Shown piece after piece: positions 12,823 through 63,797 of a DNA stretch of 64,000 bases. A model generated the notes under the pieces. That model was not told where the DNA came from and made no database searches. It saw only the letters and a program-made list of their open reading frames with translations. The stretch covers positions 1 through 64,000 of the forward strand of contig JAHLWP010000019.1 of assembly GCA_019057865.1 (NCBI GenBank), in the 5' to 3' direction. Position 1 is the stretch's first letter, and each line of letters starts with the position of its first letter. A program made the position numbers and the translations under genes. The DNA is from Promethearchaeota archaeon (GTDB lineage: Archaea > Asgardarchaeota > Lokiarchaeia > Sigyniarchaeales > SOKP01).

Positions 12823-13180
12823 CTCCCTCCCCCGTGGAGCCCCCTCCTAAAAAAGTGGGGTGGAACTGTTCTAGAATAGTGTTATTTATTCAAGCTCATT
12901 ATTAATTACTATTTTAATCATCAAGGATTTCCAGATTTTAATAATAATTGAAGTAGGATGGTATTTCAGCTGAAAAAACAATAATGCGTTATTAAATCAG
13001 CTTATAGATATTGTGAATAGCTTAAAAATTAATGCTAACCTAAAAAGGACATAAGAAAGACATAACAAATATAAGAATTAGAAATTGTACGTTAATTGGA
13101 TTACTTTTGGCAATAACTTTCAAATATTATTGATTAAGTAAAGAATAAGTTTTTTTAAATTTTAACGGTTATTTCACGAA
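12823..13180 (+). repeat. ~357-bp A-B unit copy 1 (site A at 12823-12848; site B at 13166-13180)
   Basis: Nearly identical to 22151-22508 and 52481-52836; no ORF of note. Confidence 0.95.
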
Positions 13181-13304
13181 TCCCCACAAAAGCTAATCTA
13201 ATAATTATTTTATCCTGAATCTTAATTGTCTAAGAGTCAATTTACTAAAAACTTAGCTCTTATCTTTCAATAAATAGACAATTTGAGTTTACCTTTTAGT
13301 TCAG

Positions 13305-13319
13305 TAACCGTTTCACGAA
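13305..13319 (+). repeat. Site B' (TAACCG-TTTCACGAA, inverted core)
   Basis: Same arm as site B with the 6-bp core reverse-complemented; 139 bp after site B. Confidence 0.7.
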
Positions 13320-13465
13320 ATACTCTCCTGTAAAAATCTTGACTTCATTAATTAGCTCAGATTCAAGTGATTGAACTAAACATCCTCAAATAAAATTTTC
13401 ATTACATATTATTAACTCATGATTGCATGTTAAGATATATATCTTAAAAGAAAATATAAATAAAC

Positions 13466-14152
13466 ATGGCAAAAATTAATGATATTCTGAAATATAAGAA
13501 AATTTTTTTTTTAACTATTATAATTTTGGTAGAAATAATTTTATTAGTTTTATTTACAATCCTATTCATTACAACTAACATAGAATTTTATAATCTTATA
13601 GTTGAATCATTAAGAAATTTTATAATATTAACCAGTGTAGTAACCGCTTTAACTATCCCATTTGTAATGAAAGATATTGAAGAAAAGAAACGAGAAGTGG
13701 AGTTAAGAGATCGAATAGAAACAGTTATCAATGAACTTAAAAATTATTTTGAAATTATTATCTCTTCTAAATTTGATGGACTGCCAAAGAAAAATCTATA
13801 CATTCCTCCTCAATTTCAATTTTTTAAATCCATTGCTAAAAAAGAACCTGAATTCTTAAAAAAACTCGGTATCGATATTTCAATTTATACGAGGACTTCA
13901 AAAATTGGAACTCAATATGAAGGAGGTACTTTAATAATCCTGAATATTTATAGATTACGTGGTGGGAATCAACCAACTCTTGTTTTCATACGCACAGATA
14001 GTAAATTTTCTGAGTTACTGGGTTCATATGAAAATCTTCTAAAAAAAATCATTGAAAACGCAGAAAATAATTTCTCCATAACATTAGATAAAAATTTATG
14101 CTTATTATCAGATAATCTTAAATCAGGTTATATGGAAGTAACCAAAAATTGA
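13466..14152 (+). CDS. Hypothetical membrane protein (2 N-terminal TM helices)
   Basis: Two long hydrophobic stretches followed by a charged coiled segment. Confidence 0.65.
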   Translation: MAKINDILKYKKIFFLTIIILVEIILLVLFTILFITTNIEFYNLIVESLRNFIILTSVVTALTIPFVMKDIEEKKREVELRDRIETVINELKNYFEIIISSKFDGLPKKNLYIPPQFQFFKSIAKKEPEFLKKLGIDISIYTRTSKIGTQYEGGTLIILNIYRLRGGNQPTLVFIRTDSKFSELLGSYENLLKKIIENAENNFSITLDKNLCLLSDNLKSGYMEVTKN

Positions 14153-14283
14153 ACTTTTTATAACATAATTGCCTTAAACTGTCATTTATTCAATACTGTA
14201 TATCAGGATGAAGAACTTTGGATATACTAGAATTCTATTTAATTATTAAGATTATTTTTTTTTTAATAAATCTGAATTAACTT

Positions 14284-14295
14284 CGGTTATTTCAC
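14284..14295 (+). repeat. Site B (CGGTTATTTCAC)
   Basis: 12-bp match to the site B consensus, intergenic. Confidence 0.65.
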
Positions 14296-61547: not shown

Positions 61548-61583
61548 TATTATTATATTACCATGAAAACTATATAAAATTCA

Positions 61584-62498
61584 CTAATAAGATGTTAATT
61601 CTCTAAAGGCTTTTTTTTCATCTCTTATTAATCTTAAAAATTCTTCTGCCTTTTCTTCATAAGTGCTTTTTTTATCTGCAAGTTCGATTATCTTTCCTAG
61701 TTCTTCATTACTTTTCATACTTGAAAAGAAATTATAGGTTTTTGAAAGTATTTTTTCAATATATATTCTTAATTGTTCATAATTATCAAATCTGTAGAAT
61801 CCATTTTTCTTGGTTGATTTGATATTCCGTTCTTTATTTGATATAGGTAGCGGGTTAATAGAACAAAATCCTTGAATAATACCTGCAGTTTTTAAATGAT
61901 CAACTTTATCATAATATGTATTTGTAATGGGTGTATTTCCCATAACAATGATAGGAATTCTAGATGCTTTAAAACTTGAAACCCTAATATTAATACTCTT
62001 TCCAATAGCTTTTAGCATTGAATCCGAACGCAATAGTCCAGGGTTCCCTTGATGGGACATATAATCACCAATACATTCTAAAATGATTTCAGATCCCTGT
62101 TTTGTATATTGCCAATTCCAAACAAGAGACATTTTTACCTCAATTATTAATAAAATATCTTTTGGTTCTAATTCTCTTTGATTTTTTTTTGAAATTACTA
62201 CATCTGCGGGTGATTTGGATGTTAGTGCTATATCTTCACATATTGCATCATTAACTGCATAAAGTCCTTTTTCATTAACTATTCCACTTATTAGATCTGC
62301 AGTAAATTTTTCTGTAAATTTACCAATTAAAGAATTTCTACTTTGAAGTGTTGCTTTTTTACCTTTATAGCCTTTTGGCCAATAGGCTAAATATTTATTA
62401 TCTTTAGAAATATAAAATAACTGCTCTGGAGTAGCAAATTCTTCTAAAGTCTTTGTAAAAAATCTTATCTCTGTGTCTTTATTCCATAAGCCTGTCAA
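61584..62498 (-). CDS. Putative type II restriction endonuclease
   Basis: PADVVI...IIEVKMS PD-(D/E)xK-like motif; co-oriented directly upstream of the methyltransferase. Confidence 0.7.
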   Translation of the reverse strand: MTGLWNKDTEIRFFTKTLEEFATPEQLFYISKDNKYLAYWPKGYKGKKATLQSRNSLIGKFTEKFTADLISGIVNEKGLYAVNDAICEDIALTSKSPADVVISKKNQRELEPKDILLIIEVKMSLVWNWQYTKQGSEIILECIGDYMSHQGNPGLLRSDSMLKAIGKSINIRVSSFKASRIPIIVMGNTPITNTYYDKVDHLKTAGIIQGFCSINPLPISNKERNIKSTKKNGFYRFDNYEQLRIYIEKILSKTYNFFSSMKSNEELGKIIELADKKSTYEEKAEEFLRLIRDEKKAFRELTSY

Positions 62499-62655
62499 TA
62501 TTTAAAACCATGAAATTTTGTTTTTCTTGAATAATAATATTTTATTTAATTATAAATTGTTTTATTAAATAAAAAATGACATTAAATCCTCTATTGATTT
62601 AAACAATTAGCTAAATCCTTTATTGAGTAGGGGGTATCTAAAAAATTTAATCTTT

Positions 62656-63441
62656 TTAATAATGAAAGTGTTTTTGATCTTCTTTTATTACCTTATTAAT
62701 AAAGTGTTTCATTAGTTTTTCAGTAATTCCTTTTATTTTAATAAATTTCCAATATTTTGATAAAAGTTTTTCCTTGTAGAATTTTTCACGAATATAATAA
62801 ATTATAGCATTATCAATTATTTTAAGAATTGTTTGGTTCCATTCATGGTCTAAATATTTATTAAGCTCGATTCTGTTTACAATTTCATATGAACATTTGA
62901 ATATTTGTAAAAATTTATTAATTGATTCATTTTGATTATTATAGAAATACATTAAGGTATTTTCTCTGTCCATTGGTATAATTAAATCTGGCAATAGAAA
63001 GTGTAGCGCTTTTGCATTTGAAACTAATTTTGCAGTGCTAACCATTAAATCAAGTTTTTTATATACTCGTTTTAATTTATCTAAGATAAATTTGAGATCA
63101 TGAGCAGAGGATAGTCCTGTTAATTGAAATTCTGATAAGTCAATAATATGTTCTTTTATTGATTGAATATTTGAAGAAAATTCATTAAATGGTCTTATTA
63201 TTGCTCTTCTTTGATTCATATTCCAAGAAATTAAAGTTATATAAATCAAACCTATAAAGGATTCAAATTTTTCTGTATTGAGTAAATTTTCAATGGGATT
63301 CTGCTTTCTCTCTGACATTAATAATTTATAAAAGTAAAAATCTGCGTCTTTTCTATAGCCCCAAATATTAAATTTCTTAATTAAATCATGAATATGATTA
63401 ACTAAGAAATCTACTTTTTTCTCTAATTTTTCATTTAACAT
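62656..63441 (-). CDS. Conserved hypothetical protein (K.LHF..P.L..P.DR motif)
   Basis: 261 aa; LISWNMN and NAKALHFLLPDLIIPMDR. Confidence 0.55.
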   Translation of the reverse strand: MLNEKLEKKVDFLVNHIHDLIKKFNIWGYRKDADFYFYKLLMSERKQNPIENLLNTEKFESFIGLIYITLISWNMNQRRAIIRPFNEFSSNIQSIKEHIIDLSEFQLTGLSSAHDLKFILDKLKRVYKKLDLMVSTAKLVSNAKALHFLLPDLIIPMDRENTLMYFYNNQNESINKFLQIFKCSYEIVNRIELNKYLDHEWNQTILKIIDNAIIYYIREKFYKEKLLSKYWKFIKIKGITEKLMKHFINKVIKEDQKHFHY

Positions 63442-63707
63442 GATAATCTGATCTTAGTAAATTTGAATTTTAAAATCAAGATTTAATAATTTTTTTTTAG
63501 AATTATTTTACCATATGATATACAGATTTTTAAAAAATATTCTAGAATTAAATTAAAAGTAAGTTCATTCATTAAGAATAAAACATATAATGGAAATTAT
63601 TATTATCTTAATTTATTATAAGAAAAATATAGGGGTATACACCAAAAAATTTATAAATAATATAAAGTAATACAGCGGAGTTTTATTTCAGAATAATTTA
63701 GGTAGTA

Positions 63708-63797
63708 GTTAATTGGATTACTTTTGGCAATAACTTTCAAATTTTATTGATTAAGTAAAGAATAAGTTTTTTTAAATTATATCGGTTATTTCACGAA
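63708..63797 (+). repeat. Partial A-B unit (last 90 bp, ending in site B 63783-63797)
   Basis: Matches 13091-13180 with few substitutions. Confidence 0.9.

Follow-up and report, generated by a model that had tools for sequence, protein, structure and literature searches.

Half-sites, a palindromic hub and a fixed-length linker suggest a core-dependent gene-shuffling system in Lokiarchaeia

In Acinetobacter, accessory and toxin-antitoxin modules are bounded by pdif sites, in which two arms enclose a 6-bp core, and are shuffled at these sites (PMC6449649; PMC13141974). In archaea, the dif site used by the single recombinase XerA has inverted arms around an asymmetric 6-bp core and lies beside xerA in some lineages (PMC2958812; PMC8371274; PMC5357621). 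Integrons, archaeal ones included, keep one platform site while cassettes accumulate beside it (PMC9668308), and at cer and psi about 120–180 bp of DNA wrapped with PepA and ArgR lie by the Xer core and are thought to control the recombining sites (PMC2655662). Here, we describe a 64,000-nucleotide stretch of DNA (the window) from a Promethearchaeota archaeon of the class Lokiarchaeia (contig JAHLWP010000019.1, positions 1 to 64,000; C34:1-64000 of the host genome G000, where G, C and L labels stand for the genomes, contigs and loci compared), which carries a family of 15-bp half-sites termed B (core CGGTTA followed by a 9-bp arm) and B' (the same arm preceded by the reversed core, TAACCG). 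On comparison with related genomes, these sites very probably belong to a core-dependent recombination system. More specifically, it is probable that they are the one-armed sites of a tyrosine-recombinase module system with a palindromic full site as hub, a bent linker of fixed length and XerA acting in trans. The evidence suggests that a gene-shuffling system made of half-sites, hub and linker is real and undescribed in the literature searched; no paper describing such a system was found in the open literature, subscription papers being mostly outside the search.

Judged by analogy, the Loki sites work like dif modules with an integron-like platform, yet they can be classed neither as pdif, nor as a single-copy dif, nor as attC. 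The likeness to pdif modules drawn in the preliminary description of this DNA was apt, in that modules are exchanged at 6-bp-core sites of alternating types with the host Xer presumed to act in trans. A pdif site combines two distinct arms (XerC and XerD), the orientation of which alternates from site to site, and belongs to Rep_3/OrfX plasmids of Acinetobacter, whereas the Loki sites have one arm and an alternating core, their arms all point away from a single palindromic hub, and they occupy a chromosomal island after rps11, with none in viral contigs; the fixed-length periodic linker of the Loki system has no counterpart in the parts of the two papers covered. With archaeal XerA/dif the system shares inverted arms, an asymmetric 6-bp core, a single recombinase and, in some lineages, a site beside xerA. 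Archaeal dif is single-copy and built as 11-6-11, whereas the Loki system has at least ten full sites built as 9-6-9, with different cores and a half-site family. Arms of the TAA-core-TTA type are those of XerC/D and XerA sites; the Loki arms are closer to difSL/difH (GAAA-core-TTTC). As in integrons, one platform site persists while cassettes accumulate beside it, but there is no attC hairpin and no dedicated integrase at the locus, growth is two-armed and gene orientation is mixed. As at cer and psi, putative wrapped accessory DNA lies beside the core, here recognised only by a sequence signature; unlike cer and psi, the Loki linker has a core at either end, keeps its length and bending phase and not its sequence, and is itself shuffled. 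Site structure, polarity, core alternation, exchange at cores and the length and phase of the linker can all be read from the sequences compared.

In the window, the B 15-mer has eight matches at up to two mismatches against 0.08 expected, so that it does not occur at background frequency, a possibility which the preliminary description had itself raised; the B' form has two matches against 0.11 expected, and a count of two is reached in 1 of 100 shuffles. All these half-sites lie on the plus strand, B at 13166..13180, 14284..14298 (two mismatches), 22494-22508, 24666..24680 (one mismatch), 26646..26660 (ahead of an EVE and BREX block), 52824-52838 (directly next to the 3' end of a type IIG gene) and 63783-63797, B' at 13305..13319 and 22630..22644, with convergent genes on either side of 14284 and 24666. 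The coordinates first given for the family were all correct, every site then listed is intergenic, and the spacings of 139 and 136 bp between B and B' hold as well. A third pair, absent from the preliminary description, is formed by the B site at 63783 and a degenerate B' half-site at 63921..63935 (plus strand; core TAACTG, two arm mismatches), 138 bp apart. Past the window, a further B site at C34:66068 (one core mismatch), 2.3 kb beyond 63783, closes the third linker-gene unit. An additional B match at 24856 (two mismatches) lies within the AlbA_2 open reading frame and is doubtful. The reverse arm at 16225..16233 (minus strand), formerly counted as a member, is probably a chance match and was excluded from the system: perfect arms occur elsewhere at 0.65 per 64 kb, a background above which it does not stand out, and its core is not that of the family.

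The 24-bp palindromic site that had been predicted from the two half-site forms exists: it was found once in the host genome, at C42:35881, outside the window contig, and also in relatives. It consists of a 9-bp arm, the 6-bp core and a second 9-bp arm. The host genome has 10 exact palindromes with these arms and relatives have up to 15; the full sites listed for the host genome have different cores and lie between genes. Under the strictest pattern, all 36 genus relatives carry 2-8 full sites, compared with 0-1 for the control, and in the family full sites occur in 60 of 64 genomes, with patchy recurrence in other Asgard classes. They are scattered in the single-contig genomes G006 and G023, the host genome itself being in 87 pieces. 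The CGGTTA core sits on 15 of the 290 arms of the host genome, any other core on at most 4, and it is the only one with a half-site family there; its B' form occurs in about half of the genus. The cores are under selection: GGATGG is present in 33 of 53 relatives, as a single occurrence in 32 of these 33 and at three or more different loci, and is invariant while its flanks are just 40% identical. Full palindromes with different cores also occupy an orthologous locus in another Asgard class (L561 and L563, in G175 and G185), the core of G185, GCACAC, being shared with Loki genomes, and the right arm of one CGGTTA array contains a full palindrome of another core, ACTACG (G109:C4:54312).

A full site that follows tRNA-Gly in G093 and G096 is represented in the host genome by two direct hybrid sites (C79:40573 and C27:20294) enclosing an integrase-bearing element, the contig join being deduced from synteny with G012; a full site split in this way suggests that integration is targeted to full sites. 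The examples of the empty state are G093 and G096, because G012, the closest relative, has lost the site through a small deletion. The likeness here is to integrative mobile elements exploiting Xer (IMEX), in that a full site is apparently split into two direct hybrid sites; unlike these, the C79/C27 element encodes its own integrase, and its target is one of many sites with a core of their own. The element (C79:40573-42308 and C27:1-20317, at least 22 kb) carries a ribbon-helix-helix (RHH) gene and a 306-aa integrase (C79:41171-42091); the core of its hybrid sites is CAATGG and its own arms form a different palindrome. Elsewhere, a CGATGA full site with about 45 bp of flank is repeated around one gene (L009; G006:C1, locus 1500-2410), an insertion at a hub of another core.

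Around a single full CGGTTA site, arrays with all arms pointing outward were found in G096, G109, G097, G100 and three metagenome contigs. Among 113 sequences, half-sites on opposite strands occur only across a full site and no exception to this polarity was seen (one candidate, G100:C84, was rejected when a full hub was found between its sites); 19 further loci include one degenerate doubled hub (G100:C61), which is ambiguous. Half-sites had been proposed to be the direct scars of a palindrome recombining with degenerate targets, but hub-less split pairs number zero in the 113 sequences and one, ambiguous, in the 19 more; in the arrays a single full hub persists, and the half-sites move together with their modules. 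In 20 of 21 cases the core of the first site beyond the hub is the opposite one, and alternation of cores is the usual pattern; no arm consensus is present on the side of the half-site that lacks an arm, and both possible orders, hub-linker-B'-gene-B and hub-gene-B-linker-B', are seen. Homology between genomes ends at the cores, which means that both gene modules and linkers have been shuffled at these positions. One 1.2-kb module, Na/Ca-exchanger-like to judge by its sequence, recurs at 88-92% identity in four genomes but beside different neighbours, and linkers of G012 and C42 are 96-97% identical yet lie between different genes. Among near-identical pairs, which are not independent events, both flanks differ in 53 of the 62 linker pairs and in 9 of the 21 pairs of gene modules. 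None of the 62 linker pairs is inverted relative to the arms, contrary to the earlier notion of a core inverting on its own, and no linker in the inverted state was found, nor any full site accompanied by a naked core at a distance of 138 bp. Half-site arrays are confined to accessory islands and to about half of the genus. No recombinase gene was recognised beside the hubs, and viral contigs gave zero matches to the B-to-B' unit; a generic palindrome scan of these contigs was dominated by chance and was not used.

The DNA between B and B', termed here the linker, is 136-139 bp long from core to core in 13 of 15 B-to-B' neighbours found by a search without distance filter. Searches allowing about 120-145 bp yielded 97 distinct linkers, of which 91 have this length despite low identity: they reduce to 42 representatives under 65% identity. 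From arm to core, the free DNA measures 121-124 bp. Three linkers belong to the window, all on the plus strand. The first (13181..13304, 139 bp core to core) is of the commonest linker family, with G/C and AA/TT phases near the family consensus; the second (22509..22629, 136 bp) forms a family of its own, with a strong 10.5-bp AA/TT signal in the consensus phase; the third (63798..63920, 138 bp) is 85% identical to a linker elsewhere. It had been stated that the DNA between B and B' is unrelated, and the window linkers are indeed unlike each other, but those starting from 13166 and 63783 belong to families present in other genomes. Neither the sites with other cores nor the character of the linker as a mobile, periodic element had been recognised in the preliminary description. 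Throughout the set, AA/TT maxima fall at whole turns of 10.5 bp from the core centre and G/C maxima in antiphase to them, one of these at the linker midpoint (68.6 bp). The 10.5-bp power of linkers is 26-39 times the rotation null, a level reached by 0 of 400 rotations, while flanks anchored on the same sites give 0.5-3.6; single linkers exceed ordinary intergenic DNA in this rhythm (p about 1e-7), and of five held-out linkers four are in phase. The linkers form no hairpin: mean folding z-scores are 0.05 and -0.35 over 26 of them, and the window unit gives -1.6.

Since the rhythm is phased to the cores and no hairpin is present, the linkers probably bend or wrap, perhaps on histones. A phased alternation of AA/TT and G/C is the pattern of nucleosome-positioning DNA. 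Read in this nucleosome-like manner, the two cores would be placed 6.5 turns on either side of the dyad. Seven histone-fold genes are present in the host genome, and 120 bp is the length of DNA covered by four dimers of an Asgard histone (10.1101/2025.05.24.653377). Two points weigh against wrapping by histones, namely that Widom 601 DNA gave no positioning of an Asgard histone (10.1101/2025.05.24.653377) and that linker families may share an ancestor, in which case their agreement in phase is not fully independent; for these reasons bending is supported, and histones are put forward as a hypothesis. One histone-fold gene lies just past a B half-site and a partial linker in the host genome (C85:160-749), so that a histone may itself travel as cargo. 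As to a promoter role of the linker, no gene-orientation bias was found, and a sigma-70 scan stayed below shuffle level, such a scan being uninformative for archaea.

These observations could be accounted for by the following mechanism. The CGGTTA full site would be the hub of a cassette array, and a module would consist of core, arm, cargo, AT-rich flank and the next core. Crossover within the 6-bp core would join the hub with any half-site, by integration, excision or inversion; such a crossover always leaves one complete site, and polarity would therefore be preserved. The usual mobile unit may be a circle of one gene module and one linker, which can enter through either core, so that both B and B' would arise. 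New half-sites could be generated by recombination of a full site with a weak target in its vicinity. The linker would have an architectural function: its 13 helical turns of phased, bendable DNA would form a loop or be wrapped, perhaps around four histone dimers, and would bring its two cores together like the accessory DNA of cer and psi; its bending could compensate for the missing arms. Because its length and bending phase are kept and its sequence is not, a wrapped intermediate is predicted. The enzyme would be the chromosomal XerA, acting in trans. If true, this would offer a mechanism by which Asgard archaea assemble and renew defence islands with no integrase dedicated to the task. The logic of dif modules, regarded until now as a peculiarity of Acinetobacter, would then also hold for an archaeal system with a single recombinase and a different geometry, and archaeal histones might take a direct part in site-specific recombination. 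The presence of many full sites, each with a core of its own, is a challenge to the rule that a chromosome has one dif.

XerA is the likeliest enzyme for recombination between full sites and half-sites, and we hold this assignment with reasonable, not high, confidence on genomic grounds. The host genome has five PF00589 matches, of which the chromosomal one is an intact xerA (C87:47983-48906) beside orc1/cdc6; its product scores 240 bits with NF040815 (cut-off 220), has aligned catalytic motifs and is 73-95% identical to proteins of metagenome-assembled genomes (MAGs) mostly labelled Promethearchaeota. The competing possibility is that the same module system is driven by an integrase of an element, such as the 306-aa one beside tRNA-Gly, or by an unrecognised recombinase, the dif of XerA then being a palindrome in its own promoter; this is unlikely, though it deserves to be weighed before any other. 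RHH-integrase elements do adjoin B-type full or hybrid sites in the host genome and in G050. Against such an enzyme, XerA is the sole PF00589 match in six genomes with CGGTTA half-sites, no serine resolvase was found in the host genome, and relatives of the 306-aa integrase at L363-L365, where one Loki MAG has an RHH-integrase element in tandem and no B-type sites, have no such site nearby. Sites also adjoin xerA: two Helarchaeales genomes have a full site, each with a different core, directly upstream of the gene, G082 has its only exact full site 3.7 kb away from it, and in G042 a perfect arm lies about 50 bp upstream.

Several observations count against XerA and in part favour its competitor. 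A different palindrome, confined to that locus, is conserved at the xerA promoter across the genus. G044, a single-contig relative, has XerA and no sites of this kind, G055 and G050 have none above control, and G003, G185 and G057 have sites and no tyrosine recombinase in the assembly, although the number of assemblies lacking one fits their incompleteness. The match of XerA to sites is also imperfect across genomes: the Helarchaeales XerA is only 33% identical yet goes with the same arms, while 50%-identical orthologues occur without them. No co-variation was seen between the XerA recognition helix and the presence of sites, and where distant Asgard classes have a single full site, there is mostly no xer gene in its neighbourhood. 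The palindrome of the xerA promoter covers the TATA region (C87:47937-47962) and is found in the whole genus (L001); often followed by a B-like arm, it may be an operator or the true dif, and it has a second copy (C87:46555-46580) upstream of a neighbouring thioredoxin-reductase-like gene. A wider reading of XerA, as a genome-wide address-coded system in which at least ten sites are kept apart by their cores, one of them serves as a platform for defence genes and a histone-wrapped linker pairs the cores, is tentative and goes further than we would expect to be borne out; if true, the closest prokaryotic relatives of eukaryotes would possess a gene-cassette system assisted by chromatin.

Of the readings that dispense with recombination at these sites, the least improbable, itself quite improbable, is that they are polar protein-binding marks for chromosome organisation, of the XDS or KOPS/Ter type, with modules moved by other means and the linker acting as a phased chromatin element. 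The precedent is given by XerD-bound sites (XDS) that unload SMC (PMC11840125), and the strict polarity around a centre, the many full sites per genome and the strong bending signal of the linker would suit such marks. What argues for recombination instead is that homology stops at the cores, where linkers and genes re-assort, that the core alternates while the arm does not, and that half-site arrays are restricted to accessory islands in about half of the genus. Transcription-factor operators with the linker as a promoter region, an alternative named in the preliminary description, are very improbable. Palindromic arms and the overlap of a full site with the xerA upstream region in Helarchaeales would be expected of operators, but three of the sites in the window are placed between convergent genes or beside the 3' end of one, gene direction next to sites is unbiased (after the linker, 36 sense vs 47 antisense), and the core is conserved while the flanks drift, so that an operator with a fixed promoter position and a free spacer is largely contradicted. 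Lastly, folding of the B-linker-B' unit as a single-stranded attC of integron type can practically be dismissed in spite of inverted 6-mers at the ends of a unit of about 145 bp between cassette-like genes and of the integrons reported in Asgard archaea (PMC9668308), since the folding test argues against a hairpin, the core order is opposite to that of attC, no integron integrase scores above cut-off (TIGR02249 lies below it) and cargo orientation is mixed.

Returning to recombination at the cores, the window would be a hub-less satellite array, inside an island after rps11, seeded by a repeat termed E; the C42 hub cannot be the one to which its arms belong, since their proximal side is occupied by core genes. 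Repeat E is non-coding, about 355 bp long, and runs from a site of a second family, A, to a B site, with copies 97-99% identical. On the plus strand of the window it is found at 12823..13180 (copy 1, a putative acceptor for B-type modules), 22153..22508 (copy 2), 52481..52838 (copy 3) and, in part, 63708..63797. The B sites at 13166, 22494, 52824 and 63783 are its right ends and are thus not independent. Copies of E with B also occur on C56 and in the island of G012, and six copies diverge exactly at the end of the arm. The terminal B of E would have taken up linker-gene units at 13166, 22494 and 63783, with different modules per copy. An RNA family search of E and linker gave only a sub-threshold small nucleolar RNA match.

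Single genes had been described as bracketed by the sites, and their assignments stand in part. Between B' and B lie a 228-aa protein of unassigned family (13466..14152, plus strand), whose description as a transmembrane protein comes down to one hydrophobic N-terminal segment, and a 598-aa protein (22823..24619, plus strand), called HEPN-like, which has an Rx4H motif and no Pfam or PADLOC match; the Schlafen/AlbA_2 domain of the protein encoded between two B sites (24725..26437, minus strand) was confirmed. The type IIG restriction-modification gene with its 3' end at repeat E copy 3 occupies 52856-56203. The cargo modules of the window were not found in relatives, a point against the model, and the mobility of these genes is deduced from the sites.

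The host genome is a 4.26-Mb draft of 87 contigs with 29% GC, and the window is 80% coding. The island lies downstream of rps13-rps4-rps11 and contains genes for STAND NTPases, AbiTii, Schlafen, EVE, BREX, SIR2 and type IIG proteins; after rps11, core genes continue without an island in G096 and G097, and a different island is present at the corresponding locus of the close relative G012. At the left edge of the island, a 300-bp direct repeat (84%) occupies window positions 5056-5355 and 7688-7987, and since G012 diverges from the host genome at the same winged helix-turn-helix gene, the island boundary is likely there. In G012, a 755-aa gene is inserted between rps4 and rps11 (L403; G012:C45, locus 3523-5790). 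The family A sites are GC-rich, gave no match to the detected tRNAs when considered as tRNA ends, and lie all on the plus strand, at window positions 11653, 12829, 16354, 17321, 18340, 22157, 48263, 49536, 50728 and 52487; present also on C56 and in the island of G012, they appear to form another cassette system, distinct from B and nested with it by way of repeat E.

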